Shown here piece by piece: positions 206 through 64,000 of a stretch of 64,000 nt of DNA. The translations under genes and the position numbers were made by a program. The notes beneath the pieces were generated by a model. The model had not been told where the DNA came from. It searched no databases and worked only from the letters and a program-made list of their open reading frames with translations. The first letter of the stretch is position 1, and each line of letters opens with the position of its first letter. The stretch comes from Bdellovibrionales bacterium (GTDB lineage: Bacteria > Bdellovibrionota > Bdellovibrionia > Bdellovibrionales > UBA1609): NCBI GenBank assembly GCA_965261545.1, contig CBDHDF010000011.1, positions 768,001 through 832,000 of the forward strand. Reading direction: 5' to 3'.

Positions 206-370
206 TGCTGAATTTCACGAAATAGTCCCTATGGAGTGTCTCCCGATGGCGTCTTCAAATATCTGCTTTTGCATGGATTCTCCTTAAGTCGTCTTTCTTT
301 GCCTAAATGAACTTCCAGATATGGCTACTTTGATGGATTGAGAGGTTATGCGATCCATAATAGCTTCACA
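206..370 (-). mobile_element. Internally deleted, diverged relic of IS21-B (terminus plus istB 3' end)
   Basis: TGCTGAATTTCACGA matches the terminus at 51170. Bases 221-370 align, with mismatches, to ~51610-51770 (end of istB). The ~425 bp in between are missing. Confidence 0.75.
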
Positions 371-5684: not shown

Positions 5685-7181
5685 ATGATTAGTCAATACA
5701 CTTTCGGCCGCATTCGTGACCTGAGTCACAGTGGTAAAAATAAGACAGAAATATCTCGTGAATTAGGGATCAATCGTAAGACGGTGCGCAAGTACTGTGA
5801 GTCCAACACCCCACCGAAGTACAAGGCGAGGTCCAAAAGAACTCGCCCAGATCCCCTTAATGGATATATGGATCGGGTGAAGTACTTTTTGAAGTTGAAC
5901 CCAAGTAACACCGCCCGTGAAATATATGAGCTATTAGTTGAGGAGGGTTATCGTGGGAGTGAGAGAACGGTTCAGAGAAGAGTTTGTGAGATTCTTGGTT
6001 CTCGCCCCAAGGAGCGTTTTTTCAGCCAAAGATATGATCCTGGAGAACAGGCTCAGTTTGATTTTAAGGAGAAGGTTGCTTTACCATTTGCCGATGGTGT
6101 TCAGATCGTTCATCTCCATTTTGGAACATTGCCTTGTAGTGGCACCTGTTGGGTTCGTGCCTACCCCTTTCTTGTCTATGAGTGTTTCATCGATGGGGTG
6201 CATGCTTTTTTTGAAAAGATAGGTGGGATGAGTGCGAACATCCGTATTGATAATTTATCTCCCTGTGTGAAGAAAGTTCTTAAAGGAAATCAGCGAATTT
6301 ACACCCAATCTTTTGATCGAGCCATCCAATACTATGGATTTAAGGTTCTTCCCTGCCGCGCAGGGAAGGGCTCTGACAAGGGAGATGTGGAGCGTGATAT
6401 TCGAACCTTCAGTTCTCGGATAAAAAATATTGTTAGAAACAAAGGAATTGTTTTTAAAGACTGGGATCATTTGAATCAGTTTTTAGAGTCTTATATGGAT
6501 CAGCATCAGAGTGACTCCACCAAATCTCGCTTTGAGGAGGAGGCCAAAGTTCTTAAGCCTTTGCCTCCACGAGATGAAGATATTCTCTGTAAGGTGAATA
6601 TTTGTCAAAGTAATGGTTATGGGACTTTGAGAATAGGTAAAACCACATATTCCATACCTGATGAGGTGATCCAATCTCCCTGTAAAACCGTACAGGGTCC
6701 CTATCATGTCACGATCTATCGTGCAGGAGGGAAGCAAGAAATTGTCGCTCGCCATCAAAGAAAACCTGATGGGGAGCATAGTCTTCTTCTTGAACATATC
6801 CTTCCTTCTTTAGTTCGTAAGCCGCAAGCCATGGTAAGATGGGCTCACCGATCCATTCTTTTTCCAACAAATGTGTTTGAAAATTTTTATCAATACCTCA
6901 AGCAACAAGATTCAAGCCGTGCCGAGCATGAATATTTAAGAGTTATCAACTTGATTCAGCATGTGAGTTGGCAGGACTTATCTACAGCCATGGAGCTTCA
7001 ATTAGAAAGTCGTGAGATTTTCGACTTTAAATCCATAAAAGATTTGCTCTTAGGCAATCCCACCAAAATTAATTTGAATGACCAACAAAAACCACTTCAA
7101 CCTAGATTGTCTCAATATGACAGTCTTGTTCCAAACATAGGAGGTTCTCATAGGTGTTCGTGGTTTTTTATTCTTTCATAG
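5685..7181 (+). CDS. istA: IS21 transposase IstA (C-terminus extended 10 aa by the IS4-B insertion)
   Basis: N-terminal HTH (ISRELGINRKTVRKY), PGEQAQFDF, DNL and KGDVER motifs. GAGGAGG RBS precedes the ATG at 5685. Confidence 0.9.
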   Translation: MISQYTFGRIRDLSHSGKNKTEISRELGINRKTVRKYCESNTPPKYKARSKRTRPDPLNGYMDRVKYFLKLNPSNTAREIYELLVEEGYRGSERTVQRRVCEILGSRPKERFFSQRYDPGEQAQFDFKEKVALPFADGVQIVHLHFGTLPCSGTCWVRAYPFLVYECFIDGVHAFFEKIGGMSANIRIDNLSPCVKKVLKGNQRIYTQSFDRAIQYYGFKVLPCRAGKGSDKGDVERDIRTFSSRIKNIVRNKGIVFKDWDHLNQFLESYMDQHQSDSTKSRFEEEAKVLKPLPPRDEDILCKVNICQSNGYGTLRIGKTTYSIPDEVIQSPCKTVQGPYHVTIYRAGGKQEIVARHQRKPDGEHSLLLEHILPSLVRKPQAMVRWAHRSILFPTNVFENFYQYLKQQDSSRAEHEYLRVINLIQHVSWQDLSTAMELQLESREIFDFKSIKDLLLGNPTKINLNDQQKPLQPRLSQYDSLVPNIGGSHRCSWFFILS

Positions 7182-8420
7182 CAAGACCTTTTTAGCCATA
7201 TTCATTGATGTTTTTCGCCGTCGGTAGTTTGTGTCATAAATTTCATGGGAGAATATCTTGATCTTCTCTATCAAAATATTTAAATACTTTTGAGATGAGC
7301 TTAGGAGATATTTGATAAAATCAGAGGCTAATAAGACGGTAACCTTAGCAACTCTTTGAAACGATGTGGAGTCATTTTGTTCCTTATTGAGTTTAGTTCT
7401 TCCTATCCTCAAAACAACACTTGATGTGAGGTGAGCCGCTAATGAAGCAAGAAGAAGACTCTCTATGATATTTTGATCGTTTGAGGTGATCTGATTTGCA
7501 TTCAAAGAATTCTTACAAGATTTGAAAATAAGTTCACATTGCCAACGTAAACGATAAATTGGATATATGGACTCCGCTGCCACATCTAAATTCGTGCAAT
7601 ACCAATGATAGCGTTTTTCGGAGGAATTCCAGAAGCCTACAATTCTCAAACTTACCCATTTACCATTGGACAAGACACTGCCTATAAATTCAACAACATC
7701 GTTTTTTTTCTTGAGTTTAATATCAGAGAACTCTTTTCCAACATAGTAATCTGGCAAACCTTCAACAACAGCATCAATAAGAATAGAGGCATTTGACTTC
7801 ACTCTAGACAAGAAAAATCCTTTAGCTTCATGAATAGATGACAATAAGCCATAGTCCCAATATCCCAAATCAAAGATGACTAATTTTCCAACGAGTTCCT
7901 TTATATCAGGAAAGCACTTCCTATCGTTAGTGGAAGACGGAGTTAATTCGAACCAAGTCATTATACCACTGAATAAACTGAAACAAGCGTGCCATTTAAT
8001 TCCTGCGTTTGTTCTTGTCCCTGGAAAATTCTCAGATGCTCCATCCCAAAGGCTTATTGTGCTTGAGTCAACAAGAAGAACGTCTGAGACTCCCAGTTGT
8101 AATAATATGGCTTTGCTTCCATGAAAAGCTCCATGAGATAGCTTTATCATGAGCATTTCAACCAGTTTACTCAGAAGCTTTTTTAATCTTTTTCTAGAGA
8201 GTCTTTCCCAGAAGCTGTGTCTTTCAATTCTTAACCCTAAATGACTTATCATAAACCTCCTAATCCCCTCTATTGAATATGTCTTAGAGTCTCCCTGGAA
8301 TGACAAGACAAGAGCCACAATAAACTCAAGAGGTGGAATGGTTGCCCGAGAGTCCTTTTCAGGAATAACTTTCTTGAAACATTTTTTGATCGTTTTAAGT
8401 GTTTGAGCTTCCGTGCTCAT
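7176..8420 (-). CDS. IS4-family transposase
   Basis: LVDSST, FDLGYW and YRLRWQCELIFKSCK motifs. Confidence 0.92.
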   Translation of the reverse strand: MSTEAQTLKTIKKCFKKVIPEKDSRATIPPLEFIVALVLSFQGDSKTYSIEGIRRFMISHLGLRIERHSFWERLSRKRLKKLLSKLVEMLMIKLSHGAFHGSKAILLQLGVSDVLLVDSSTISLWDGASENFPGTRTNAGIKWHACFSLFSGIMTWFELTPSSTNDRKCFPDIKELVGKLVIFDLGYWDYGLLSSIHEAKGFFLSRVKSNASILIDAVVEGLPDYYVGKEFSDIKLKKKNDVVEFIGSVLSNGKWVSLRIVGFWNSSEKRYHWYCTNLDVAAESIYPIYRLRWQCELIFKSCKNSLNANQITSNDQNIIESLLLASLAAHLTSSVVLRIGRTKLNKEQNDSTSFQRVAKVTVLLASDFIKYLLSSSQKYLNILIEKIKIFSHEIYDTNYRRRKTSMNMAKKVLL

Positions 8421-8525
8421 ATTTGCCCCCTGCGTTTAAAAAATAAAAATTTCCTCCAATTAATCTTGACCTATTAAGATACTAACGCGAGAATCATTAA
8501 GTCTGTAGATAACTCACTTGTATCT

Positions 8526-8849
8526 ATGCGGATTCATTGTATTCGACAGGAGCAAAAAATAGCAATGATTTTTGGACTTTTAATATTACTTTCTTTGGGA
8601 TCCTTTATATCTCTTTTTATTTCCTTATTGGTATTTGGATTTGGTTATTTACTGGCACTCATCCTCCCATTAACTCAGATGCAAGCATCTTATTTGTTTT
8701 TTGCTTCACTCACACTTTTGGTTCTTACATGTATTTTTATGATGCTCATATCTCAATTTAAAAATCGTTACTTTCACCAGAATCTAGGAGATATTCTTTT
8801 TGATAATTTGGATGAGGATTTGGAAGATGAAAAGAAAAAAAAATTGTAA
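8526..8849 (+). CDS. Small hypothetical membrane protein carried inside IS4-B
   Basis: Two hydrophobic stretches and an acidic-then-basic tail. The true start may be the ATG at 8565, after AGGAG. Confidence 0.55.
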   Translation: MRIHCIRQEQKIAMIFGLLILLSLGSFISLFISLLVFGFGYLLALILPLTQMQASYLFFASLTLLVLTCIFMMLISQFKNRYFHQNLGDILFDNLDEDLEDEKKKKL

Positions 8850-9177
8850 CTGAAGATATGTCGGCATCACAGCAGAAAAATGACCAAAGCGAAAAAATTG
8901 AAAGAAATCAATCCTGTCCATGCGGAAGTGGAAAGAAATTTAAATTCTGTTGTTCCCAAAAGTCCACAGTTCTTTCGTTACACAATTAAGTCTCTTAAAA
9001 CACATGGCTTGTCGTGGATATCAAATGTCAATCTGCGTCCATTTCTCAAAATACCATCTATAAATATTTATAAATCGCCCACTTCCCTCTATGTAAAAAA
9101 GGAGGCTTGAAAAGTATTTCCATTAATTCGGAATTAAAATTAGAAAAAAACCACGAACACCTATGAGGAGGTTCTTA

Positions 9178-9960
9178 ATGAATCACGAAGAACTTATAGG
9201 TTCTCTTAAAAAACTCCGACTTCCAGCGATGGCGGATGAATATGTTGCAACGGCTAGAGTTGCCGAAAAAACAAAAAAGACGTATGAACAGTATTTAGGT
9301 ATACTCGTTCAAAATGAGCTTGCTGACAAGCATTCCCAGAGAGTGAAAAGATTGCTTAAGGGGGCCAAGCTTCCTCAACTTAAATCACTCCAAACTTATA
9401 ACTTCCAGAAAAGAACGGGAGTGACAGCTCAGAAAATTAATCGGATGGCAGAGGGAGAGTGGGTCAGAAAAGCCTGTAATGTTGTGTTTTACGGAAGCTT
9501 TGGAATGGGGAAAAGTCATTTGGCCATGTCCCTAGTTCGTTCACTCTGTGAACAAGGCTATCGATGTTTATGGGTCACCACTCATGAACTTATTGAAACA
9601 ATGCGTGAAAGCAAGAAAGAACTCTCATTGAATGCTCTTTTTAAGAAATTAGACCGTTTTGATCTTATTGCTTGTGATGAACTTGGCTATACAGCTTCCT
9701 GCACAGAGGGTGCTGATCTTTTCTTTCAATTCATATCTCAGCGATATGAAAGGAAAAGTCTCATGATCACTACAAACTTAACTTACTCTGAATGGGATAA
9801 GGTGTTTCTTAACCCTATTACCACCGCTGCTGCTGTTGATCGAATTATTCACAACTGTGAAACCCTCAACATTGAAGGAAAAGAAAGTTGGAGAACCGAA
9901 TCCGCAAAAGCCAAGTCTAAACAGAGCAAAGAGGAAAGTTCAACCAAAGAAGTTCATTAG
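9178..9960 (+). CDS. istB: IS21 helper ATPase IstB
   Basis: LRLP start, Walker A GSFGMGKSH, DELGY, ITTNL and AAVDRIIH motifs. Confidence 0.95.
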   Translation: MNHEELIGSLKKLRLPAMADEYVATARVAEKTKKTYEQYLGILVQNELADKHSQRVKRLLKGAKLPQLKSLQTYNFQKRTGVTAQKINRMAEGEWVRKACNVVFYGSFGMGKSHLAMSLVRSLCEQGYRCLWVTTHELIETMRESKKELSLNALFKKLDRFDLIACDELGYTASCTEGADLFFQFISQRYERKSLMITTNLTYSEWDKVFLNPITTAAAVDRIIHNCETLNIEGKESWRTESAKAKSKQSKEESSTKEVH

Positions 9961-9987: not shown

Positions 9988-10085
9988 GCCAGTTATCCAC
10001 AAAATTTATCCACAGCAGCACTGCGTTGCTAGACATCGGGGTCACAGCCGCAGTGTCGCCATGGATAAATTTATGGATAACTGGC
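9988..10085. repeat. DnaA-box hairpin module (copy in IS21-A #1)
   Basis: Inverted arms GCCAGTTATCCACAAAATTTATCCACA ... TGGATAAATTTATGGATAACTGGC, with two perfect TTATCCACA boxes. Confidence 0.85.
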
Positions 10086-10573
10086 TTTTACCGTACTATT
10101 TGCTCGTCACTCTCGCGGAGATTTAGACATTAGCTGCGCCAAGGAATCCTGAAAAATACTCCATTTACCTCTGCCATAGGGCTGAAGGATGCATTTGGGG
10201 TCATGCCAAAAGTGGTGGGTAGAAAATCATTCCTCAGAATCTTGTGGCATAGTCCGAGTTAAATGATGAGCAAAATAAAGACACTTGACTAAACTCTGAA
10301 CGAAGAATAACTAAATCAGTACATCATCAACTGGCCGTTTTTCATTGGCGACGGCTTCTAAAAATGGCCAATTTTAATTGGCGCCTAACACACCTTACAA
10401 AATGTTTAAGAGATAAGAAGATGAACCTAAAAAGCCCAGCCATAGGCATTGGTCATGTTAAAGAGCGACCTTTAACTGTTGTAGAGGCCATGAGGGAACT
10501 CAAGGAAGTTAGGGCTATCCCTGTTAAAATTCGTGATCAAGTCATTTGGACCCGCACAGATATCACTGGCAAT

Positions 10574-11199
10574 GTGTGCCACGAAGTCACGGAGGTGACA
10601 TGCTGATGTGAAGATGGAGGTAGGTCCTCCGCACTCGGATTTCAGGATTTGAGTGCAAACAACCTTGCTGCTGCATGGGAGGCAAGGCCCTTGTAGTGAG
10701 CGAGCAAGGAAAAGGCCGTAGTAAACGGTCATGTAAGTACTAGGGAGATGAGCGAAAGCAAACCCACCGACGACGCATCGAAAGATTAACAGTCGCGTCA
10801 AAACCGAAGGAAGGTTGTCTCCGTCGGGATAAGTCTAGAGGAAGCCTGATGACCGATCTAGACGGCGTGCGGTGTATAGGGGGCATGAACCTAGTACAGG
10901 CTTCGTATCGGAACGTGGGAACCTGCTGGTGGATGATAAGGGAAACGCTATAAGGGAGACCCCCGAAGTGCTAAATACCGATGCCACCAACCAGGGGCAG
11001 AGTGATTCGTAGTAGTGATGAAGTTCTTGTAATGAGAATGGAGCGAAGGGGTCACATGATTTATGGAAGTAGTCAGGCCAACTTGGTTATGCTGAGGAGG
11101 AGCCTAATGAAACGGAAAATCATAGGAGCCGTGTGAGGGGAGACTTTCAAGCACGGTTCTGTGAGGGGCAGTGGGGGAAGTTCCCACTGCCTACTCGAT
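10574..11199 (+). ncRNA. ORF-less group II intron (IIB, class D/RmInt1-like), 626 nt
   Basis: 5' GTGTG and 3' ...TACTCGAT. Domain V is GAGCCGTGTGAGGGGAGACTTTCAAGCACGGTTC; domain VI is a hairpin with a bulged A. It is precisely absent, with no duplication, from the IS1634 copy at 62842/62843. Confidence 0.93.
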
Positions 11200-16596: not shown

Positions 16597-17290
16597 CTTT
16601 CTCGTAACTGCTCACCCTTGCTCTTCTGACAAGATGAGAAATATAGCCTACATTCCGCACTTTTAAGGCGCAAAAAGTTGGAGTCAGTTGTCTTTAATTT
16701 CAATCACTTAGGAAACTTTTATCACTTCCAAGGTGTCTTTGACATACCTTTTTGCGCAATCAAAGCGACCTTTTTTTCTAAGACTCTTAATCTCTTAATT
16801 CTTCGGCGACACTCTTCAGCTTCCTCCTCTGTTACAATGCCATTCGTCTATGAAAAAGTATGTCAAGAAAATATACCTATCCATGTTGCAAAAAATTACC
16901 ATCTTTTGCTGCATACGGTCACCCGTCCTTCCGAAATCTCTCACCAAGTTCTTTCTAGCACTTCTTCTTCATGGTTAATGGCTTTTTATTTACATCTCTA
17001 AAACAACATATTCCTATGATTCGTCTATTTGGACACTCTTAATTCAAGACCGGTTGGAAAATGCTCCTTCCTACAATCTTCAATTTGGGTCATCGTAAAT
17101 GTTAAGGAATAGAGGACGTACTAATCGTTTAAATGAACCTTTATGGCTATCGAATGGATTGAGCTATCTATCCTCACCTCATAATAAAGTCATTGTCTAC
17201 TTTTCGCTATATGCTTAAAGAACTACTGAGATTTTTATGAGGCTGTTTTAATATATTTTACATTTTTGTATTTCCTGTAGGGTTTAAATT

Positions 17291-20200
17291 GGGACTGTAA
17301 AAATAATTGTGTAACTGCAATTTTTTTCTTAAATCTTAAAGCCACTTATGTGGCTCCACTCCTGGTAAAAAGCACAGTCCCATATTATTCGTCAATGTAT
17401 AATTGACATTTTTTCCTTCAAGCGATTTTGTCAGTCAGAATGCATTATAAGTTAATGGGGAGGTGGACATCTTCGCTGGTCTATATAATTGGCCTCTTTA
17501 GTTACTCTGGACTTTTGATTGTATTATGGAGCCGTAATGGGATCATATCAGAACTGGAAAGAACTCAAATAAATAATTATCATCTTGGTTGAAAAAAAAT
17601 CAGCAATGGCTCTCTCAAAAAAATGGAAATTCCAATCTCATCAAAGGGTTCATGTGTTTAGGTTCCCATACTATATTACCCCCTTTTTTTTATTTTTTTT
17701 AACTTAGGATATTCGAGAAATACCAGAATTGGGATGAAATATGAAAAAAAATGGGAACCCAAATCTGCACCAAGAGGGCATGTATTTAGGTTCCCATACT
17801 ATATTACCCTAACCATAGTCTCGGTATTCCAGTACTTCTGTCAACGCCTTAGAGGGGCTTTTAAGCCCCCTTATAAGGCAGGTGGTGGACCTTATTAAAA
17901 AACTTAGTTGTCAAAACGGTCACCGTATTCAATGGCAAACCTGTTCATGGCTGGCTTCCAGTTGTGTAATGGTCGTGTCCATCGCTTAGAGGCCATTTTT
18001 ATCGCTAAATATACAACTTTTAAAGCCGACCGATCACTGGGAAATATCTTACGATTTCTGATCGCCTTGCGGATCACGCTATTTAACGACTCTATGGCGT
18101 TTGTGGTATAAAAAATCTTTCTGATTTCATCCGGATAATCGAAAATAGTGATGAGATTGTCCCAATTCCTACGCCAAGACTTTTCAATATTCGGATACTT
18201 TGAAGACCACTTGGTACAAAATTCCTCAAGGGCCTTTTCAGCTTCTGTCAGAGTCGTAGAGCCATAAATGGACTTGAGGTCTTGGGCGACAGCTTTCATA
18301 TCCTTGGAAGGAACATAGCGAAGGGAATTGCGGACCATATGGACAATGCACAGTTGTACTTTAGACTTGGGAAAAGCCGCTGAAATGGCTTGAGGAAAAC
18401 CTGTAAGACCATCTACAGAAAATATAAATACGTCTTTCAACCCTCGATTTTGCAGCTCAGTCAAAACACTCAACCAAAACTTTGAACCCTCATTTTCAGA
18501 AATCCATAGGCCCAACAAGTCTTTCTGACCCTCCTCTGTAATACCAAGAGCTAGGTAAATCGCCTTATTAATAACTCTCTTGTCTTGATGGACCTTCACC
18601 ACGATACAGTCCAAAAATACGATAGGGTAAGTGCTATCCAAGGGGCGGTTCTGCCAAGCCGTAACTTCATCAATAACAGCATCCGTCACGTTGGCTATCA
18701 CTGAGTGGGATATCTCTGCACCATGGTAGAGGTCTTTGATAGCTCCTTGAATCAATGCCGTTTCCTTAAGCCACCACACCCCTCTGCCTCTGCGTTAAGC
18801 TATTTCTTTTAAAAGAACTCCCAGCCCTTTTGATAGACCTTTCATAGCTTCTTTTGAAGTGCCTCCTCTTCTCCATTGAAATCTTCATCAGCAACTTTAT
18901 CTGCTTCCTAAATTTCTGATAGAGCCCCGCAACAAAAAGGGGGATGCTATCCATTATGAAATCAAGAATCAGTTTAAAGTTAGGTTTTTTGTAGTCATTT
19001 TTTACCAACTGATTCACACTGTCTTCATCCTCATTTATGCTCATTTGAATCTTTGTATAATTGAAGAGCCAAAAATAAGAATACAGCTCTTGCAATATTC
19101 CATTAAGGCTTGTTGAGTGCCACTGCTCCATTTTCATTGTCGATGTAAAATCACGAAATGTCGTTTCTATTTCCCAACGACGAGAGTAAAGAGCAACCAT
19201 ATCCTTCTTGTCCAAGGAGCCATGCGGAAGATTAGTGGCCAAAACAGAGAACTCCCCAGTCTTTGGGTTTTTATACTTATAGAGATGAATGACCACCCCC
19301 TCAATAACCATTTGTGAATACCAACCTGGGCCATTAAATAAATTTACGATGGGGATAAAAGTAGAGCCTCGCTTACAACGCGCAATAAAGAAGTTACTGG
19401 CTTGAGCATGGGCCTTAATAATCTCTGTAGATAAATAAAGCCTATCGTAGAGAGTTATGCTATTACTCTCAAAACTACCTATCATTTGAATAGCATTGGC
19501 GATTTCGTTGAGAGCGGGAGAATAGCAAAGATTCTTTGTCACACCCGATAAAACGTCATAAGCATGAGATAGATACATACGTAAGAAATGAGTTTCCATC
19601 TCATTTGGGCAAGGGTACCCACAATAACCCTCCTTTAAAAGATCTTTAGAGCGAGGAAGTGCTAATTGGTCGCCATCTATGGCATAGATATAAAAACCAT
19701 GAAACGTTTTTCTCAATGGTTCGTAGTCTGTAATCAGAGATTCAAAGATATCTTTGAAAAATAGGTAAGAAATACTTTGACGTATCTTGCTGAGACTGCT
19801 TTTGACTGGCATGAGAAGCAGGTCACCAAAATGAGTCCATACCGTCTTAAGAGCGATTTGGTAGCCTTCGTAATTTGTTCCGGAAATAAGATAGATAATG
19901 GTAAAAAAGAAAATTTGAGGATTAAATTTTCGATTCCTTTTTTGTTTTTCTGGATCGACAAGGTGCTCTGGCTTGAAGGAAGAATCAAGTTTTGGTAGAA
20001 TAAAATGGTCATCTGTGACGCGAACTCGTCATTTGGGGGCTTTCGAGATCAATATTGGATTGCATGTGACTTACTCCTTGGTTGAGGGTTGGGTGTAAAA
20101 TAAAACAAGTCTTATTCTTGTCGATTTATCTAATGATTTCAAGAGATTTTTCTTAAGGAAACGGCATTGCTCCTTGAATATCCCTGGTCGTCATTCCCCT

Positions 20201-22845: not shown

Positions 22846-25098
22846 GTGTTAAAACTTGTGCAATCAAAATCAAAGGGTGTAACTTACTACGCTCACACAT
22901 CTGAAACTGAAACCGGAGACTCTAATCCGGATAAATTGAGCTGGAACCTACTTGCTAAACACTTACGTAATGTGGGGATTAAGGCAGAAAAATTTGCAGA
23001 ACCTTTGCTCGCTAATGCGGCTAAACAAGCTGGATTGCTTCATGACTTAGGTAAGTATCGAATTCAATTTCAAGAATATTTAGAAGGTAAAATTCCAGGG
23101 TCAGAAAACACTCACCATGCAGTATATGGTGCCGCCTTGTGTTTTAAAAGAGGTTGGGTGGGGCCATCTTTTGCCATTGCTGGACACCATGCAGGCTTGC
23201 ATAATCGGAGTGATTTAAAGAAGTTGGTTTGTGGAAAAAAATACAGCGCCATGGATCAACTAAGTTCTTTGGAAGAGTTGTTTGAAACTGAATTGGAAAA
23301 GATACCCAGTGAACTAAATGAACCAGAATTTGCTAAAAAGGAAGACAAAGCTATTGCTGAATTCTATGTGCGCATGTTATTTTCTTGCTTAGTAGACGCA
23401 GACTTTTTAGATACGGAGCAGTTCAAAAATCGACGGGAACGATGTCCTTTGAAAATAGATTCTGAGTTAATGTTGAAAAGATTGCAAACGCATCATAGTA
23501 AGTTTGACTCTTCAAGAGAAATCAATCAGTTACGTAGTGGTATATTTCAAGACTGTTTAAGAAAGGCAGCAGAGCCAAGAGGATTTTTTTCCCTGACCGT
23601 ACCCACAGGGGGTGGCAAAACCTTCTCCAGTATGGCCTTTGCTGTAGAGCATGTACGGCGTCACAAAATGCAAAGAATCATAGTAGTGATACCTTACTTG
23701 TCAATTATAGAGCAAAATGCCTCTGAATATAGAAGAGTATTAGATCCAGAAAATAAAGGTATCGTTATTGAAGATCATTCGTCAGTGGGTTCCAAGGATG
23801 ACGAGGAAGAACAAGGACGAACTCTAGAGGAGATGGCAGCAGAAAATTGGGAAGCACCCATAATTGTCACTACTTCGGTACAATTTATCGAATCGCTCTT
23901 CTCGAATCGAACCTCAAAGTGTCGAAAGCTACACAATATTGCAAACTCTGTGGTGCTGTTGGATGAAGTACAGACGCTTCCTTCTCATTTGCTTGATCCG
24001 CTTCTACATGTGCTGCGAGATCTCAAGGAAAATTATCGCACGAGTTTTGTTTTATCTACTGCCACTCAGCCTTCTTTTAAATACAGTACGTCGTTAAAGA
24101 ATGGTTTTAAGGCAAGAGAGTTGCAAGAAATTGTTTCACAGCCTGACAAACTATTTCAAAGACTAAGACGAGTAACCTACGAAGTGAGGTCTGAAACAAA
24201 TGATTGGCCAGAGTTAGCCGAAGAGTGGGAGACCTGCCCTCAAGTCCTAGGGGTGGTCAACACTCGTAAGCAAGCAGTTGCATGGTGGGAGTTCTTGAGG
24301 AATCGTCACTTGAAAGGCATTTTCCATCTTTCTTCAGCTATGTGTGCTGATCACCGGACTGAGGTTCTAGGAAAGGTGAAACGGTGTTTGGAAAACAAAA
24401 AGTCTTGCAGACTAGTAGCTACACAGGTAATCGAAGCAGGGGTAGACATTGACTTTCCATTGGTTTATCGAGCTTTGGGGCCGCTAGATTCGATTGTACA
24501 AGCCGCTGGACGGTGCAATCGTGAAGGGCGGTTGAAAAAGGGGCGCATGATTGTTTTTAAACCAACAGATGCCAAATTGCCCAAGGGTGTGTATTCTGTA
24601 GCCACAAACATCACGGCACGATTGCTAAGCCAGCCGAAACATTTATCTACGGATGATTTATCTAGAGATCCGTCTCTGTTCAGCTGTTACTTTAACGAGT
24701 TGTTTCAATATGTACCAACAGATCATCAACATAGAAGAGAATCTTCCATTCAAGAGGATCGAGAGGCATTGCGTTTTCGTGACGTAGCTGGCAAGGCAAG
24801 AGTTATTACTGATGATACTCAACCTGTAATTGCTCCAAGGGTGAAGGCTTTAGAAGAAGTGAACAAAATACGAAAACGCCCCCAAGCAAGTAGTTCTCGC
24901 TTTACTCGTGGGGATTTACGCAACTTACAACGATTTATGGTGAACCTACATAGAAGAGACTTCCAGCAGCTAAATACAATGGAACTGCTTCACCCACTTT
25001 TGCCCGGTATGGAGCTATGTGTGTTAGATAAAGCAGCTTACCATGAATACCTTGGTGTAATTATTGACCAGCGACCAACTGAGGACTTCTTATTATGA
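22846..25098 (+). CDS. cas3: CRISPR type I Cas3 HD nuclease-helicase
   Basis: YAH, LHDLGK, HHAG and LVDAD (HD domain); VPTGGGKT, DEVQ, STAT and QAAGRCNREG (SF2 helicase). Confidence 0.96.
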   Translation: MLKLVQSKSKGVTYYAHTSETETGDSNPDKLSWNLLAKHLRNVGIKAEKFAEPLLANAAKQAGLLHDLGKYRIQFQEYLEGKIPGSENTHHAVYGAALCFKRGWVGPSFAIAGHHAGLHNRSDLKKLVCGKKYSAMDQLSSLEELFETELEKIPSELNEPEFAKKEDKAIAEFYVRMLFSCLVDADFLDTEQFKNRRERCPLKIDSELMLKRLQTHHSKFDSSREINQLRSGIFQDCLRKAAEPRGFFSLTVPTGGGKTFSSMAFAVEHVRRHKMQRIIVVIPYLSIIEQNASEYRRVLDPENKGIVIEDHSSVGSKDDEEEQGRTLEEMAAENWEAPIIVTTSVQFIESLFSNRTSKCRKLHNIANSVVLLDEVQTLPSHLLDPLLHVLRDLKENYRTSFVLSTATQPSFKYSTSLKNGFKARELQEIVSQPDKLFQRLRRVTYEVRSETNDWPELAEEWETCPQVLGVVNTRKQAVAWWEFLRNRHLKGIFHLSSAMCADHRTEVLGKVKRCLENKKSCRLVATQVIEAGVDIDFPLVYRALGPLDSIVQAAGRCNREGRLKKGRMIVFKPTDAKLPKGVYSVATNITARLLSQPKHLSTDDLSRDPSLFSCYFNELFQYVPTDHQHRRESSIQEDREALRFRDVAGKARVITDDTQPVIAPRVKALEEVNKIRKRPQASSSRFTRGDLRNLQRFMVNLHRRDFQQLNTMELLHPLLPGMELCVLDKAAYHEYLGVIIDQRPTEDFLL

Positions 25099-25850
25099 AA
25101 GACCACTATGCTATACACCTGAGAGTTTGGGGCGACTGGGCTTGCTTTACTCGCCCTGAAATGAAAGTCGAGCGTGTTAGTTATCCAGTTATGACACCTT
25201 CTGCCGCTCGGGGTATCTTGGAGGCCGTTTTCTGGGAACCACAAGTCTGTTATTACATTGATACTATCCGGGTGGTAAAACGTGGTCTTTGGACTTCAAT
25301 TCGGAGAAATGAAGTGCAAGCAGTCATCAGCATGAAAAATATTTGTCAATGGATGGTAAAGCCAGAGAATTCCTCACCAATTCAGGTAGAAAGCAATCGT
25401 ACTCAGCGCAACATGTTGGCACTGCAAGAGGTGGAGTACATCATTAGTGCTGAATTACATACCACGTCTTTAGCGAACCCCAAGAAAGACTCCTCATTAA
25501 AGTATTTTTCTGAGTTCAAGCGTCGTGCCCAGCAAGGCAAATGTTTTCACCGACCTGCCTTAGGTATGCGTGAATTTGCTGCGGATTTTGAATGGGTAAG
25601 TGATCCTAAGATAGCCTGGAAACAACGAGCCAATGAACTGAGCATAAATTGTCAACAGCCCGATGAAGACTTAGGCTTGATGCTCTATGATGTTTTTTCA
25701 CCGACAAATCGTATCCATGGTTTTCGTTGGGGCCAACACAATGAATTTATTGGTAAGCTAGTCAAACCTAAGCCTTATTTTTTTCACGCTAAAATTAAAG
25801 ACTCCACTTTGACTTGTCATCCTAATCAAATCGAAATACTTAACCAATGA
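25095..25850 (+). CDS. cas5c: Type I-C Cas5c (Cas5d)
   Basis: GDWACFTRPEMKVERVSYPVMTPSAARGILEAVFW, RRNEV and GKCFHRPALGMREF motifs. Confidence 0.96.
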   Translation: MKDHYAIHLRVWGDWACFTRPEMKVERVSYPVMTPSAARGILEAVFWEPQVCYYIDTIRVVKRGLWTSIRRNEVQAVISMKNICQWMVKPENSSPIQVESNRTQRNMLALQEVEYIISAELHTTSLANPKKDSSLKYFSEFKRRAQQGKCFHRPALGMREFAADFEWVSDPKIAWKQRANELSINCQQPDEDLGLMLYDVFSPTNRIHGFRWGQHNEFIGKLVKPKPYFFHAKIKDSTLTCHPNQIEILNQ

Positions 25851-25854
25851 AGAG

Positions 25855-26299
25855 TTGCTAATGCTATTAAAATATTTGAATGATTTTTCAATTTCTCGAA
25901 ATCTTCTTGATGACTTGGCTTTTACACGTAAGGAAGTGCGCTGGATCATTACTTTAGATGAGGCTGGAAACCTCATTGGAGAAGGACCAGTGGAAACTGA
26001 GGGAGGAAAGAACCAGGGTAAGGCATTCGAATGTCCAAGGATACTGGGCTCCAAAGTGGCCGGTGGTGTGGCTGAGTTCTTGGTAGATAGCATTACAGCC
26101 GTGTTTGCTTTAGACACAAACTTAGAAGAATTAGGAAAAAAAGAAGAGAAGAAGCGGGAGAAGCGGCAGGAAAACAATCGTAAGAAGTATGATAATTTCT
26201 GGGCACAGATTGAAAGAGCCCAGCAGCAAACTTTCAACTCATTACTAAAAAGCCTATTGACCTTCAAGTCCAAGATAGCAGGAAAAGAGCCATCCTTTT
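25855..26299 (+). pseudogene. cas8c: Cas8c (Csd1) 5' fragment, truncated by IS256
   Basis: Lies after cas5c and has a WII-x-LD-x-x-G-x-L...P-R...FL-x-D N-terminal pattern. Only ~148 codons precede the IS end. Confidence 0.8.
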
Positions 26300-30233: not shown

Positions 30234-30889
30234 ATGATAAAACAAATTTTCTGCTCACTCCTCCACTTGATAGCGGCGAGAGTATTATACCTCTCTCCTC
30301 TATTAACCAATTTCTTTATTGTTCTCGTCGGGCAGGACTTATGTATGTGGAAGGCGTCTTTACTGATAATGAGCATACAGTTCTTGGCCGCCAGCTTCAT
30401 AAGGAAGTCGATACTTCTGGCTATGCAACCATTAAAGGCGTGACTTTACTTCGTGCTTTGCCTGTTTGGTCTGGTCAATTTGGGCTTAGTGGCAAGTGCG
30501 ATATTGTCGAACGCCATCCTGATGGTACATTATTTCCTGTCGAGTTCAAAAAAGGTCGACGCCGGAAGTTCGGTAACGATGATGCCCAACTTTGCGCTCA
30601 GGCCATTTGCCTTGAAGAAATGTTTGGTCGAAGTATTCACCGAGGTGCTATTTTTTATTTTAAAACCAAGCGTCGCCGGGAAGTAGAATTTACCGAGGAA
30701 TTACGCTGTCTCACCAAACAGGTGATCAGAGATATGCACCAACTGCTATTAGAGAAAGTTATGCCACGGGCCGTGCATAAACCTCAGTGTTCGGAGTGCT
30801 CGCTTTTTGGAAGTTGCATGCCTGAAGTCACAAGTATTCCGCCCGCACTAGCTAAAGCTAGTCAGGCAGTATTTGATACAGATGATTAA
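30230..30889 (+). CDS. cas4: Cas4 exonuclease
   Basis: YC-x-RR, GKCDIVE, PVEFKKG, QLCAQAICLEEM and C-x-x-CSL-x-x-x-C-x-P motifs. Confidence 0.95.
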   Translation: MNDKTNFLLTPPLDSGESIIPLSSINQFLYCSRRAGLMYVEGVFTDNEHTVLGRQLHKEVDTSGYATIKGVTLLRALPVWSGQFGLSGKCDIVERHPDGTLFPVEFKKGRRRKFGNDDAQLCAQAICLEEMFGRSIHRGAIFYFKTKRRREVEFTEELRCLTKQVIRDMHQLLLEKVMPRAVHKPQCSECSLFGSCMPEVTSIPPALAKASQAVFDTDD

Positions 30890-30927
30890 TACTTTTGTTA
30901 ACTGTTAAAGGAGGTCAAACAATCACT

Positions 30928-33613: not shown

Positions 33614-33829
33614 TGACTATATTGCTTTTATTCCAAAATAAGGCTATATGAGGTAAAATATAAAGCCCCTTTCTTTTGGGGCTCCAAAATTCTCTAAAGG
33701 AAACCATCTCCAACTATGACTTTGTATAGAGGAAAAAAAGAAGAGGAATTAACCTCTAGTGTGGTGGGTTAACTTAACAATTAACTGCTCACACTTGTTA
33801 TAAGGATCTCTACCTTATTTTAGAAGGAT

Positions 33830-34168: not shown

Positions 34169-34265
34169 GGAAATAGCTAAAAACTGGATGTACAGGTTAT
34201 TCCTAAGATTTGTACATAAAAACACGGAGGACAGGGCTACCAAATCACTTGTGTGGAGAGCCGCC

Positions 34266-34357
34266 GTTATCCACAAGACTCACCCACAGCAGCGCTGCTT
34301 TATTGTGGCTCCGAGGGCCATAGCCGCAGCGTCGCCATGGATGAGTCTGTGGATAAC
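34266..34357. repeat. DnaA-box hairpin module (copy in ISL3)
   Basis: GTTATCCACAAGACTCACCCACAG...CATGGATGAGTCTGTGGATAAC. Confidence 0.85.
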
Positions 34358-34425
34358 TGACTCATCTTGGCGGAGTTAGTATGGGGAGGTGAATTGGAAA
34401 AAGAAATGTTGATCGACAATAAAAA

Positions 34426-35691
34426 CTATAATGTACAAAAACGCTTGGGGAAACTTCCAACAATATCCAAATCCCCAGCACACAAGTAAATCATATTCTC
34501 AAAACCCTGTAGGTTCTTAAATCCTGAAGCCCGATTTTTTATGATCTTTAGAAGGCGATTGATTCCCTCAGCCTTGGCATTTGTGACAGGATCTTTAATG
34601 AAGGAAAGAATATTTTCTTGGTGCTTCCTGAGCATCAAGGCAAACTTTTTCATAGAATCAATGCGTGATCTTAAGGCACGAGTGATCCAGGCATTCAGAA
34701 AATTCGCAGCATGACCTGGACTCACATAATCCCAGAAATGCTCAAAATTATCTTTAAGCAGCCATGCTCTGAATATTTTATTGTTAGATTTCTCCATGAG
34801 GTTAATTTTACGAGTTTGGGCCTTACTACGAGAGGATGAACTGTAGGCTATCAACCAGCGAGTTCCCTTAATAGCCTTTCTGTCCTTCTTGCAGGCATCT
34901 CTCCAAATTTCTTTTCTCACCTCATCCACAGCCCTGTTGAGGGATTGAATAATGTGAAATTTGTCCAAAACGAGAGTAGCATTCTTACAATGCTCCTTGA
35001 TAGAGGAGATGTAGCCTTGAGCCATATCACAACAAGCCACTCTAATTTTGTCTCGCTGATATTGGCTGAGTTCCTTTGTAAAAAAGGAGTCTATTGTCTC
35101 CTTACCCTTACCTTTTCCAATCCAAACGACACAGCCTTTCTTCATGTCGTAAATCAAGGTAATAAACTTCCTTCCCTTAGCATAAGAAATTTCATCGACT
35201 CCAATGACCTCCAAACCACGAATTTTGTGACCATCTCGTTCCCTGTGGATGATTCGATGAATAAGATCAGATAAGGTGGATGTGGGTATCTTGACAAGCT
35301 CTGAAACGGCTTTTTGGGTCATCTGCTTGGTCAGGGTCAGAATTGTTAGTTCCAGACGATAGGTGACTCGACTGAAGTGGTCGGCCCAAGGAATTCTCTC
35401 CATAATACGACCATGAGTGGGACACAGAACTTCCTTCGGAGAATAATGGAAATAAATGGGGGTACCGCACACGACGATATCTCGCCACACTCTTTCTTCT
35501 AAGCATCTAAGTATCTTACAGCGGCGTCCACAATGAGGACAGCGGCAGCCATTCTTATGGGGTTTAACCCCTAAGTGAAGTTCTTGATTTCGATTTTTAA
35601 ATTTAACCCAAGTCACTTTTAAGAATGATAATTTCAACATCTTTATAATAAACTTATTCAAGACCATGGCATCTCCTGTATTATTTTCCAA
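34426..35691 (-). CDS. ISL3-family transposase
   Basis: CPHCG zinc finger, GVDEIS, CDM, DKFHI and TNAKAEGIN-x-x-x-K motifs. Confidence 0.95.
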   Translation of the reverse strand: MENNTGDAMVLNKFIIKMLKLSFLKVTWVKFKNRNQELHLGVKPHKNGCRCPHCGRRCKILRCLEERVWRDIVVCGTPIYFHYSPKEVLCPTHGRIMERIPWADHFSRVTYRLELTILTLTKQMTQKAVSELVKIPTSTLSDLIHRIIHRERDGHKIRGLEVIGVDEISYAKGRKFITLIYDMKKGCVVWIGKGKGKETIDSFFTKELSQYQRDKIRVACCDMAQGYISSIKEHCKNATLVLDKFHIIQSLNRAVDEVRKEIWRDACKKDRKAIKGTRWLIAYSSSSRSKAQTRKINLMEKSNNKIFRAWLLKDNFEHFWDYVSPGHAANFLNAWITRALRSRIDSMKKFALMLRKHQENILSFIKDPVTNAKAEGINRLLKIIKNRASGFKNLQGFENMIYLCAGDLDIVGSFPKRFCTL

Positions 35692-35853
35692 TAAGTAAAT
35701 TAAGAGATTAAACCATGGTTTTGTTATGGGTAAAGTAATGAGGGGGATAAATCATGGAAATTGAATTATTTTCTTGGTTTTTAATGCGGTAATTCTGCAA
35801 CGTCGAAATTAGGCCCATTTTCTGTTGAGAAACTCGGATATACCCAATTTTGT

Positions 35854-36949: not shown

Positions 36950-37379
36950 TGTTAGGCGCCAATTAAAATTGGCCATTTTTAGAAGCCGTCGCCAATGAAA
37001 AACGGCCAGTTGATGATGTACTGATTTAGTTATTCTTCGTTCAGAGTTTAGTCAAGTGTCTTTATTTTGCTCATCATTTAACTCGGACTATGCCACAAGA
37101 TTCTGAGGAATGATTTTCTGCCCACCACTTTTGGCATGACCCCAAATGCATCCTTCAGCCCTATGGCAGAGGTAAATGGAGTATTTTTCAGGATTCCTTG
37201 GCGCAGCTAATGTCTAAAGCTCCGCGAGAGTGACGAGCAAATAGTACGGTAAAAGCCAGTTATCCATAAATTTATCCATGGCGACACTGCGGCTGTGACC
37301 CCGATGTCTAGCAACGCAGTGCTGCTGTGGATAAATTTTGTGGATAACTGGCGAGTTCCTTCCCCAAAAGTGGGGATCT

Positions 37380-51169: not shown

Positions 51170-51685
51170 TGCTGAATTTCACGAGTTTGACCCACTGAAT
51201 TTCACGAAGTTTGACCCACCCCTCAGTCAGTCAATTTGAGGTCCAATTTTGAATTTCACGGTGGCTCAAACTTTGTCAATTTAAACCTTCTTTTTTCTGC
51301 TGACTCAGTAACTTTTACACCCTCAATGTCACGATGTCCCAACGGTGGGTTAAGGCTTATTTGCCAGAATGTTAGATGCCAACTAAAATTGGCCACTTTG
51401 TCATTGAGAATCTCGGCCCTTCCCATTTTTGAGGTTTCAATGGAGGGTTTTTCGATGGGGATGTTGAACCCATGGCTCAAAATGGCAGAGAATAGCGAGC
51501 CAGTTATCCACAAATTTATCCATGGTGACGCTGCGTCTGTGACCCCGATGTCTATCAACGCAGCGCTGCCGTGGGTAAATTTTGTGGATAACTGGCGGGT
51601 ACATGATTCAATAGTTCCGATGGAGTGTCTCCCGATGGTGTCTTCTGATGGTGTCTTCTAAGGTCTGCTTTTGCATGGATTCTCC

Positions 51686-52414
51686 TTAAATCGTCTTTCT
51701 CTGCCTAAATGAGCTTCCAGACATGGCTATTTTGATAGCTTGAGAGGTTATGCGATCCATAATAGCTTCACAAACGATGGGATCCCCAATGACTTCACTC
51801 CAATTTTTTATTGGAAGTTGGGTTGTAAGAATGAGGCTCAGGTCAGGGCCTCGTTCATCAATCACATCGTAAAGGTCTTGATATTGGCTGGAGGTAAGGG
51901 GTTTGATACCAAAGTCATCCAACACAAGTATAGAGATTGATTTTAGCCTTTTAAGGAAGTTTAGATATGTCCCCTGGGCTCTTTCTAAGTTGAATTTTTC
52001 AACAAGAGTATTCATTCTGAAGAACTGAGTGGAAAAACCCTGGCGACAGGCGTGATTGCCTATGGCACAAGCCAAATATGACTTTCCAACACCTGTTGGG
52101 CCAGAGATAATTATATTTTGACCTCTTTGAGCAAATCTCATAAGGGCTAGATCACTCAAAACTCTTCGATCGACTCCTCGGCTGGGCTTGGTTTCAAAGG
52201 CCTCAAGGCTTGCTTTTTGCTTCAAAGCTGCTCTTTTGATAAGTCTTAAGACCTTCTGATTGTCACGATGGATTTTTTCGTCCTCAAAGATGACATTTAG
52301 AAAGTCCTCGTAACCAAGATCCTGCTCCTCAGCTTCTTTGAGCCTCTGGCTCAAGGTTGCTAAAACTCCCCTCATTTTTAATATCTCTAATAAATTTTCT
52401 GTTTGTTTAATCAT
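51686..52414 (-). CDS. istB: IstB ATPase
   Basis: GPTGVGKSYLA, LDDFG, TTQLP and AIMDRI motifs. Confidence 0.93.
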   Translation of the reverse strand: MIKQTENLLEILKMRGVLATLSQRLKEAEEQDLGYEDFLNVIFEDEKIHRDNQKVLRLIKRAALKQKASLEAFETKPSRGVDRRVLSDLALMRFAQRGQNIIISGPTGVGKSYLACAIGNHACRQGFSTQFFRMNTLVEKFNLERAQGTYLNFLKRLKSISILVLDDFGIKPLTSSQYQDLYDVIDERGPDLSLILTTQLPIKNWSEVIGDPIVCEAIMDRITSQAIKIAMSGSSFRQRKTI

Positions 52415-55535: not shown

Positions 55536-58500
55536 TGTTAGGCGCCAATTAAAATTGGCCATTTTTAGAAGCCGTCGCCAATGAAAAACGGCCAGTTGAT
55601 GATGTACTGATTTAGTTATTCTTCGTTCAGAGTTTAGTCAAGTGTCTTTATTTTGCTCATCATTTAACTCGGACTATGCCACAAGATTCTGAGGAATGAT
55701 TTTCTGCCCACCACTTTTGGCATGACCCCAAATGCATCCTTCAGCCCTATGGCAGAGGTAAATGGAGTATTTTTCAGGATTCCTTGGCGCAGCTAATGTC
55801 TAAAGCTCCGCGAGAGTGACGAGCAAATAGTACGGTAAAAGCCAGTTATCCATAAATTTATCCATGGCGACACTGCGGCTGTGACCCCGATGTCTAGCAA
55901 CGCAGTGCTGCTGTGGATAAATTTTGTGGATAACTGGCGAGTTCCTTCCCCAAAAGTGGGGATCTCTAATGAACTTCTTTGGTTGAACTTTCCTCTTTGC
56001 TCTGTTTAGACTTGGCTTTTGCCGATTCGGTTCTCCAACTTTCTTTTCCTTCAATGTTGAGGGTTTCACAGTTGTGAATGATTCGATCAACAGCAGCAGC
56101 GGTGGTAATAGGGTTAAGAAACACCTTATCCCATTCAGAGTATGTTAAGTTTGTAGTGATCATGAGACTTTTCCTTTCATATCGCTGAGATATGAATTGA
56201 AAGAAAAGATCTGCCCCCTCTGTGCAGGAAGCTGTATAGCCAAGTTCATCACAAGCAATAAGATCAAAACGGTCTAATTTCTTAAAAAGAGCATTCAATG
56301 AGAGTTCTTTCTTGCTTTCACGCATTGTTTCAATAAGTTCATGAGTGGTGACCCATAAACATCGATAGCCTTGTTCACAGAGTGAACGAACTAGGGACAT
56401 GGCCAAATGACTTTTCCCCATTCCAAAGCTTCCGTAAAACACAACATTACAGGCTTTTCTGACCCACTCTCCCTCTGCCATCCAATTAATTTGCTGAGCT
56501 GTCACTCCCGTTCTTTTCTGGAAGTTATAAGTTTGGAGTGATTTAAGTTGAGGAAGCTTGGCCCCCTTAAGCAATCTTTTCACTCTCTGGGAATGCTTGT
56601 CAGCAAGCTCATTTTGAACGAGTATACCTAAATACTGTTCATACGTCTTTTTTGTTTTTTCGGCAACTCTAGCCGTTGCAACATATTCATCCGCCATCGC
56701 TGGAAGTCGGAGTTTTTTAAGAGAACCTATAAGTTCTTCGTGATTCATTAAGAACCTCCTATGTTTGGAACAAGACTGTCATATTGAGACAATCTAGGTT
56801 GAAGTGGTTTTTGTTGGTCATTCAAATTAATTTTGGTGGGATTGCCTAAGAGCAAATCTTTTATGGATTTAAAGTCGAAAATCTCACGACTTTCTAATTG
56901 AAGCTCCATGGCTGTAGATAAGTCCTGCCAACTCACATGCTGAATCAAGTTGATAACTCTTAAATATTCATGCTCGGCACGGCTTGAATCTTGTTGCTTG
57001 AGGTATTGATAAAAATTTTCAAACACATTTGTTGGAAAAAGAATGGATCGGTGAGCCCATCTTACCATGGCTTGCGGCTTACGAACTAAAGAGGGAAGGA
57101 TATGTTCAAGAAGAAGACTATGCTCCCCATCAGGTTTTCTTTGATGGCGAGCGACAATTTCTTGCTTCCCTCCTGCACGATAGATCGTGACATGATAGGG
57201 ACCCTGTACGGTTTTACAGGGAGCTTGGATCACCTCATCAGGTATGGAATATGTGGTTTTACCTATTCTCAAAGTCCCATAACCATTACTTTGACAAATA
57301 TTCACCTTACAGAGAATATCTTCATCTCGTGGAGGCAAAGGCTTAAGAACTTTGGCCTCCTCCTCAAAGCGAGATTTGGTGGAGTCACTCTGATGCTGAT
57401 CCATATAAGACTCTAAAAACTGATTCAAATGATCCCAGTCTTTAAAAACAATTCCTTTGTTTCTAACAATATTTTTTATCCGAGAACTGAAGGTTCGAAT
57501 ATCACGCTCCACATCTCCCTTGTCAGAGCCCTTCCCTGCGCGGCAGGGAAGAACCTTAAATCCATAGTATTGGATGGCTCGATCAAAAGATTGGGTGTAA
57601 ATTCGCTGATTTCCTTTAAGAACTTTCTTCACACAGGGAGATAAATTATCAATACGGATGTTCGCACTCATCCCACCTATCTTTTCAAAAAAAGCATGCA
57701 CCCCATCGATGAAACACTCATAGACAAGAAAGGGGTAGGCACGAACCCAACAGGTGCCACTACAAGGCAATGTTCCAAAATGGAGATGAACGATCTGAAC
57801 ACCATCGGCAAATGGTAAAGCAACCTTCTCCTTAAAATCAAACTGAGCCTGTTCTCCAGGATCATATCTTTGGCTGAAAAAACGCTCCTTGGGGCGAGAA
57901 CCAAGAATCTCACAAACTCTTCTCTGAACCGTTCTCTCACTCCCACGATAACCCTCCTCAACTAATAGCTCATATATTTCACGGGCGGTGTTACTTGGGT
58001 TCAACTTCAAAAAGTACTTCACCCGATCCATATATCCATTAAGGGGATCTGGGCGAGTTCTTTTGGACCTCGCCTTGTACTTCGGTGGGGTGTTGGACTT
58101 ACAGTACTTGCGCACCGTCTTACGATTGATCCCTAATTCACGAGATATTTCTGTCTTATTTTTACCACTGTGACTCAGGTCACGAATGCGGCCGAAAGTG
58201 TATTGACTAATCATAAGATCCTCCTCATTGCTAACCTTTTGAGTTGCAAAAGGGAGGGACTCTGTGAGCTTAGTATCTATATCAGAAGAAGAGACTTCAT
58301 TGTCTAGTATTTGAACACTCCCTGAAGATTGGTCACTTTTCATTGGCGACAACCTCCATATTGAAAGTGGGACATTTTAATTGGCGACGGCTTTAAGGGA
58401 AGCCTGTCTTCAAAAAGAAATTCCATGAAAATTGAGGCAAATGTTGGAATCTTGTGGAATTTAAATACTTTAGAAAATGGGCACAGCCTAAACAGGCTTT

Positions 58501-63791: not shown

Positions 63792-64000
63792 GGCTATATC
63801 CGAGTTTCTCGGAGCCTAAAGTCCAAATTCCCTAGGGAAATAGCTAAAAACTGGATGTACAGGTTATTCCTAAGATTTGTACATAAAAACACGGAGGACA
63901 GGGCTACCAAATCACTTGTGTGGAGAGCCGCCGTTATCCACAAGACTCACCCACAGCAGCGCTGCTTTATTGTGGCTCCGAGGGCCATAGCCGCAGCGTC
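63792..64000 (-). mobile_element. ISL3 copy 2 (runs off the window)
   Basis: Matches 34125-34333, including the start of the hairpin module at 63933. Confidence 0.92.

Follow-up and report, generated by a model that had tools for sequence, protein, structure and literature searches.

Background

Among described systems, the closest to the element reported here is the A-site of the ABC primosome, which we take to come from plasmid R6K near its gamma origin. This ssiA-type signal is a hairpin of single-stranded DNA whose stem contains a DnaA box, a plan that our element would share. When such a box hairpin forms on single-stranded DNA coated with SSB, DnaA binds it and loads DnaB, and priming by DnaG follows (PMC6127211). 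Likewise, the single-strand origins (sso/ssi) of plasmids and of ICEBs1 are optional, strand-specific folded priming signals (PMC4595007; pIGMS31 preprint 10.1101/2022.12.05.519187). In the literature searched these origins are described for plasmids, phages and ICEs and not for the copy-out circles of insertion sequences (ISs); the module proposed here would be analogous to them in that it may prime the second strand on the single-stranded form of a mobile element.

The outer end of IS50/Tn5 has a DnaA box. There, as here, a DnaA site lies inside an IS, but it is a single duplex box on the transposase-binding end, with no hairpin and not common to several families, unlike the element of this study. 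REP/BIME repeats with their RAYT partners are imperfect palindromes behind stop codons, as is our element, which is however much longer, restricted to IS interiors and accompanied by no intact RAYT partner that we could find.

The IS families IS3, IS21, IS110/IS1111 and ISL3 form circles, presumably by copy-out transposition (bioRxiv 10.1101/2023.06.07.543989). Host replication, for which the flanking 3'-OH serves as primer, processes the figure-eight intermediate, whose conversion to a double-stranded circle is left, in the sections of the source drawn on here, to "host replication and repair machinery" (PMC9333248).

We investigated a stretch of 64,000 nucleotides (the window) from a Bdellovibrionales bacterium (GCA_965261545.1, contig CBDHDF010000011.1, positions 768,001 to 832,000), in which an earlier note, made from the sequence alone, had described a DnaA-box hairpin shared by IS21 and ISL3 elements and had likened it to the R6K A-site. 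Using profile searches, structure prediction and comparative genomics we found that this hairpin is a portable module of IS ends. We put at about one half the probability that it is a strand-specific DNA hairpin that, once single-stranded, attracts host DnaA and so primes the second strand of a copied-out IS circle.

Results and Discussion

Architecture and location of the module

All six copies that the earlier note had placed in the window were recovered at their positions, those of IS21-A copies 2 and 3 as reverse copies (Table 1). Each is an imperfect palindrome of 92-98 bp that starts GTTATCCA and ends TGGATAAC. Each arm carries two box-like 9-mers at a pitch of 12-13 bp, and in each type two of the four are the perfect DnaA box TTATCCACA; the boxes read TTATCCACA on the 5' arm and point to the loop, not to the stem base. 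The note had assigned perfect boxes to the outer arms. Their presence stands at two of four per type, but in IS21-A both lie on the same arm (9993 and 10006), the opposite arm bearing CATGGATAA and TATGGATAA. In all four host types the hairpin is situated 27-80 bp 3' of the last stop codon, well interior to the element ends. IS21-A copy 1 is itself split by another IS at about 7149-9165.

Table 1. Positions of the hairpin module and associated features in the window
Feature	Position	Strand	Remarks
Hairpin module, IS21-A copy 1	9988..10085	-	G-T wobble-folding strand = minus, antisense to istB
Two perfect DnaA-box 9-mers in tandem, IS21-A copy 1	9993-10001 + 10006-10014	+	13 bp pitch
Two degenerate boxes, other arm of IS21-A copy 1	10060..10080	-	10060-10068 with tandem wobble; 10072-10080 with one mismatch
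istB of IS21-A copy 1	9163..9960	+	Hairpin begins 27 bp past its stop
Right terminus, IS21-A copy 1	10379..10390	+	Left terminus at 5118
Hairpin module, full-length IS21-A copy 2 (36950-40195, genes on minus)	37255..37352	+	Wobble strand = plus
Hairpin module, full-length IS21-A copy 3 (55536-58781, genes on minus)	55841..55938	+	
Hairpin module, IS21-B	51499..51596	+	91% identity to IS21-A module
istB of IS21-B	51686..52414	-	NCBIfam
IS21-A-like right-end repeat within IS21-B	51370..51399	-	87% over 30 bp; between hairpin and own IS21-B end at 51170
Hairpin module, ISL3 (element 34125-35845)	34266..34359	-	Wobble strand = minus, sense to transposase
ISL3 transposase	34426..35691	-	NCBIfam ISL3
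About 180-bp segment common to ISL3 and IS110 of the same genome (C7:186332 region)	34210..34383	.	
Second ISL3 hairpin copy, cut by window end	63933..64000	-	ISL3 right end at 63792

An oriC-like origin was rejected as an identity for the module, whose core is GC-rich, the genome having a separate oriC-like region at C4:31645-31870. An intrinsic terminator was also rejected, given that a run of four Ts follows only the IS21-A stem and none is seen in the other hosts. Nor does the module belong to a known Rfam RNA family, a match to an annotated family having been among the outcomes that the note foresaw: no match in the window reached the gathering score, and local matches were sub-threshold only. 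The host has an intact dnaA, behind which the oriC-like box cluster lies, along with priA and dciA. The names of its IstB relatives suggest that it belongs to the Bdellovibrionota.

Census of the module in the genome

A profile made from four window copies and run over the 4.3-Mb genome (4.32 Mb) gave 216 matches at 110 loci. The 106 loci that were typed all lie within an IS or IS remnant, namely IS21-A (60, of which 56 full), IS21-B (19, 18 full), ISL3 (23, 20 full), IS110 (3) and an ISL3 end remnant (1), and of the four untyped loci one is a chance match and three are 25-bp halves of copies split by an intron. NCBIfam models confirm the IS21 (IstB included), ISL3 and IS110 carriers, with the IstA of IS21-B scoring 148 against a cut-off of 160; the families named in the note were therefore correct, and IS110 is added to them by the census. 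Every full-length IS21-A (33/33, mostly 3,246 bp, 26 with target duplications of 5-6 bp) and every full-length ISL3 (15/15, 1,721 bp, 14 with target duplications of 8 bp) contains the module. Contigs of four sequencing runs yielded no additional hairpin variant.

The palindromic form of the module, its presence in several ISs and the Y1 transposase fragments of the genome would all suit an independent MITE or a REP-like repeat that inserts into ISs. We consider this explanation highly improbable and already largely refuted. No copy lies outside ISs or their remnants, no free copies with their own duplications, which the note had named as a refutation, were found, the position is fixed per IS type, and a flanking duplication of the module's own is missing in 19 of 20 distinct flank contexts, all of which agrees with the note's description of a portable cis module in IS ends. 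Further, the Y1 matches are short fragments away from the listed hairpin positions. A REP/RAYT system was likewise rejected, only Y1 fragments (58-95 aa of open frame) being found and no module copies outside ISs.

The genome has 298 perfect TTATCCACA boxes, of which 202 reside in the module, so that two thirds of all perfect DnaA boxes in a cell can be carried by about 100 ISs. Outside the hairpin, 38 of 96 perfect boxes are those of IS1634 (window 61253-62914 and 37 other places), in which the box overlaps the stop codon, and the IS110 of this genome has one perfect box just 5' of its transposase gene. Among the other repeated transposase families listed (which include other IS21 types, an IS256 and rve-type elements), no such box pair was detected 3' of the genes. 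Repeated segments make up about 1.64 of the 4.32 Mb, with dozens of IS types, and other circle-forming ISs have expanded in this genome without the module. The GC skew is scrambled, and hairpin orientation has no bias relative to local skew or replichore.

Exchange of the module between unrelated ISs

The modules of IS21-A and IS21-B are 91% identical over 103 bp, whereas only 52 of 206 aligned residues agree between the two IstB proteins. The boundaries of this homology are sharp at the stem ends, and are seen likewise in contigs of two studies. The statement in the note that the neighbouring sequences are unrelated does not hold throughout: ISL3 and an IS110 elsewhere in the genome share about 180 bp at 84% identity, a segment that is oppositely oriented to the transposase in the two elements; a weak alignment of IS21-A with ISL3 continues past the stem for about 20 bp; and an IS21-A-like right-end repeat lies behind the IS21-B hairpin, from which we infer that IS21-B probably captured an IS21-A-type end. 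That the module is portable and has been exchanged between the unrelated IS21, ISL3 and IS110 elements is supported by the data. At window 206-300 there is also an IS21-B-like right end (206-240) that has no module; it occurs in four copies with one identical flank and is probably a segmental duplicate.

The module was found in none of 22 IS21-A relatives (one of them without downstream sequence, and the duplicate locus L062 excluded), 18 IS21-B relatives, 29 ISL3 relatives from the phylum and six from plasmids (seven of the ISL3 loci with <40 bp downstream), and any such module is missing in 11 of 12 IS110 relatives, several of all these loci ending at contig ends. Two IS21-A relatives (L034:2296-2360; L053:1670-1735) have, at the corresponding place 3' of istB, a twin-hairpin module of another kind, and one ISL3 relative (L141, from G189) has a lone perfect DnaA box five bases past the stop codon.

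Broader searches gave a similar picture. There was no copy in plasmids by blastn and no match to a strict pattern in 185,579 species genomes. Five weak matches came from 40 relatives, the two inspected being dnaA-dnaN box clusters; both metagenome pattern matches were dnaA-dnaN origins, and the ten viral ones were phage box clusters without IS genes. A scan of viral contigs via transposases returned no relatives. The pattern did not find the module in 400 genomes of the phylum, and a covariance model of the window element (R1) had one weak match, inside a gene, in 120 genomes of the order. No copy was thus found in any other genome searched; since repeats often remain unassembled, we describe the module as not found elsewhere rather than absent. 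In line with the note, which knew of no account of the element, a literature search (outside subscription journals, ISfinder notes and supplements) turned up no report of hairpins with DnaA boxes at the 3' ends of ISs.

These distributions bear on the idea that a plasmid-type priming hairpin was captured once and then spread by nested insertion and recombination, with no present benefit to the ISs. It would account for the many relatives that lack the module, for the captured IS21-A-like end of IS21-B, for the four module-free ends at 206-240 with their one identical flank, and for the negative searches of the 400 genomes by pattern and of the 120 by model, with its one weak in-gene match. It sits poorly with the sharp IS21-A/IS21-B boundaries at the stem ends, with boxes and wobbles that are maintained despite spacer change, and with a related hairpin in the same slot of two other IS families (see below), and on balance we think it unlikely.

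Fold, covariation and strand bias

Structure prediction for six strands gave z-scores of -4.5 to -9.2, none of 200 shuffles being equally stable. Over seven variants the stem has 32 pairs, with 96.9% of the 224 cells paired and one invariant A-C. Four changes in it are double-sided and four single-sided, and all of the latter retain a G-T pair. The spacer swap to which the note drew attention (AAATTTA/TAAATTT in IS21 versus AGACTCA/TGAGTCT in ISL3) is real. The compensating stem changes that it deduced survive as the four double-sided ones, but they come from seven kin sequences with few events, three of the four falling on a single branch (IS21 versus ISL3/IS110), and the evidence from covariation is therefore only suggestive; arm-to-arm conversion can also produce double-sided changes in palindromes.

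Of the seven non-Watson-Crick positions, six form G-T pairs on the same strand (binomial p 0.06). This wobble strand, which is the sense strand of ISL3 but the antisense strand of IS21 and IS110, folds better in 7/7 variants, both as DNA, by 0.7-3.9 kcal/mol, and as RNA. The outer box is fully paired within the stem in six of the seven variants, with one G-T in IS21-A, and the inner box has wobbles; the outer box cores are invariant, and boxes and wobbles were retained while the spacers changed. Among 50 ungapped of 54 IS21-A copies, variable sites number 0/98 in the hairpin versus 29/592 in the flanks (Fisher p 0.025), a difference that is not significant against the non-coding flanks alone (p 0.13).

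The one-strand G-T bias suggests that the form in which the module folds and acts is a particular single strand rather than ordinary duplex DNA. The note had favoured a function at the DNA level because the orientation to the transposase is opposite in ISL3 and IS21. That orientation is as it reported and does argue against a role in the transposase mRNA; the strand bias adjusts the conclusion, in that it points to a single strand rather than to the duplex.

A DnaA-binding regulator in duplex or cruciform form, with four inward boxes that block read-through both ways, tie transposition to DnaA or titrate DnaA, is in our view rather unlikely. DnaA can serve as a transcription roadblock, and the position 27-80 bp past the last stop in all four hosts, the 202 of 298 perfect boxes held by the module and a 12-13 bp tandem pitch that resembles the dnaA-dnaN region of a relative (L003) are what such a regulator might present. 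Yet duplex binding requires neither the spacer pairing nor the strand bias, both of which are seen, and titration would follow merely from copy number.

The G-U bias and the better RNA fold of one strand could also reflect control of the stability or processing of the transposase mRNA by an extended stem in a transcript, either antisense or 3', and five of seven mapped 5' ends of a group II intron lie in the wobble strand. This role at the RNA level is very doubtful: ISL3 has its wobble strand in sense orientation, IS21 and IS110 have theirs in antisense, the invariant DnaA-box cores are left unexplained, Rfam gives no match, and a consensus scan found one promoter-like site against 0.6 expected. 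The intron sites share sequence with two non-hairpin sites, so that pairing by sequence accounts for them.

The intron in question is a 645-nt ORF-less group II intron (C11:1055948-1056592 of this genome; its 3' part also in the window at 43266-43574). Its seven mapped 5' ends comprise five at one position in the hairpin wobble strand and two in the right end of IS1634, and all the sites share an ACGCA..TGCTGCTG-like sequence (one in variant form), which indicates that it homes into IS ends. As all seven sites share a sequence, we do not regard the insertions as evidence that the target is folded. Another type of group II intron (window 10616-11199), 71% identical to the first and located in an IS1634 end, has several copies, two of them in tandem.

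A related hairpin family on IS110, IS3, plasmids and R6K

One of the 12 IS110 relatives (G276, locus L189; same order) has a branched hairpin directly past the stop codon, with box-like motifs in reverse arrangement and G-T pairs again on the antisense strand. An IS3 gene on a Legionella antarctica plasmid (L198) is likewise followed directly past its stop by a hairpin 85% identical to that of G276 and with the same antisense G-T bias. Further relatives occur on a second Legionella plasmid and in intergenic regions of small Oceanimonas and Aeromonas plasmids. Such DnaA-like hairpins behind IS110/IS3 genes and on Gammaproteobacterial plasmids were found here, and we came across no printed description of them. 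No counterpart of the IS3-type hairpin was found in E. coli genomes, and a covariance model of the family (R2) had one weak match in 100 phylum genomes and none in this genome.

A model of these five hairpins (G276, the two Legionella plasmids, Oceanimonas and Aeromonas), with R6K left out, was run over 92 sources (396 kb) and returned as its single non-self match R6K 25893-25972, on the wobble strand (E 2.5e-5, a rough value); within R6K this site scores 35 bits versus 11 at the next. The R6K hairpin had been chosen beforehand, ahead of the model search, on its TTTTCCACA box. The candidate hairpin (25909-25956) has TTTTCCACA at the stem base and lies upstream of the pi gene, near the gamma origin; at E up to 1 the hairpin of this site is present on 48 plasmid records, on 24 of them over most of its length. 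In the joint family of ten aligned members, whose structure was set by hand from R6K, 10 of 20 pairs have a double-sided change, as against 0/500 shuffles. The identification of R6K 25893-25972 with the A-site is our own, and makes it a candidate unconfirmed in print; in PMC6127211 the box of the A-site bears the name "R1", and the 9-mer at the R6K candidate site is not exactly that one.

The window element and the related forms have in common, on the wobble strand, the helix TTATCCATGG/CTGTGGRTAA, with identical tandem T-G/G-T and an identical T-G or T-A position. Scored against the family profile, the window helix fits best in a permuted topology on the wobble strand in 5/5 variants (pair-profile test, p 0-0.005 versus shuffled pairs, 0.001-0.10 with the boxes kept in place). 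The loop of the window element thus closes the other end of the common helix, and the box polarity is reversed. Model R1 matches the G276 hairpin weakly (E 0.01) and has no match at R6K 25893-25972 at E up to 1. Hence the comparison with R6K runs via the IS110/IS3 hairpin family and not through a direct match, and we describe the window element as one that would work like an A-site but do not class it as one.

The R6K candidate site resembles the window element in its tandem T-G/G-T helix CTGT/ATGG and in its one-strand G-T bias. The window element differs in its two boxes per arm, its 32-pair stem and its reversed box polarity, and is without the basal box that the R6K site has on its 3' arm, with a mismatch and with its CACA end toward the single-stranded flanks. 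Moreover, the ABC primosome was defined with DnaC, whereas the window element sits in ISs of a DciA-type host. The IS110/IS3 hairpin is like the window element in its slot past the transposase stop, its exchange between IS families, its wobble helix and its antisense wobble strand, and unlike it in its R6K-like topology and its branched 140-nt form with side arms. The likeness to the R6K A-site drawn in the note accordingly gains support through the related family, which matches R6K, and is weakened by boxes that face the loop, by the DciA host and by the many relatives that have no module.

A proposed role in priming the second strand

Replication through the figure-eight would displace the bridged strand. 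That strand would then require a fresh primer, which the hairpin would provide through DnaA. On the displaced strand it may fold and present its stem to DnaA, whereupon helicase and primase would synthesize the complementary strand. The displaced strand is predicted to be the antisense one in both IS21 types and the sense one in ISL3, and the module would be an optional booster and no core part of these ISs.

For priming of this kind speak the position of the module in IS ends, its exchange, its long stem, the one-strand G-T bias, the invariant outer cores and the family-shared helix. Against it, the box polarity is the reverse of that in the R6K-type hairpin and a basal mismatch box is not in the equivalent place; most close IS relatives, and other expanded circle-forming ISs, are without the module; there is no replichore bias; and the exact form has no homologue in any collection searched. 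IS110 may also excise without replication.

If DnaA does prime the second strand, a swappable IS-borne hairpin would name the missing priming step and predict which strand is displaced, and the A-site, instead of a curiosity of one plasmid, would become part of a covarying family present in two phyla, in ISs as well as on plasmids. We advance a wider proposition more tentatively, as possible though short of even odds: that copy-out ISs carry and trade DnaA-dependent single-strand priming signals, that these belong to a family with two topologies that includes the R6K A-site, that in this genome an IS burst carried the inside-out form through IS21, ISL3 and IS110, and that the folding strand marks the donor IS end.

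Other observations

Patterns for the reverse arrangement of boxes gave 0, 4, 0 and at least 121 matches in viral contigs, and those inspected (the 4, and 80 of the 121) were phage box clusters, as classed by ORF starts without a family scan. Many small phage contigs (L021-L030, L088-L091, L202-L281) have DnaA-box clusters in inverted arrangement, often close to contig ends or to terminase-like genes.

The window has several other features. IS256 (17289-17900 and 26298-26910) has a 600-bp 3' non-coding end with a 65-bp direct repeat and hairpins of its own. A type I-C CRISPR-Cas locus (22846-36430) is disrupted by several ISs, with the cas8c/cas7 region split and an ISL3 inserted between cas2 and the 6-repeat array. 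Finally, the region 43587-45941 encodes a DUF285 (BspA-like) repeat protein with a PKD domain and 75-bp repeats.
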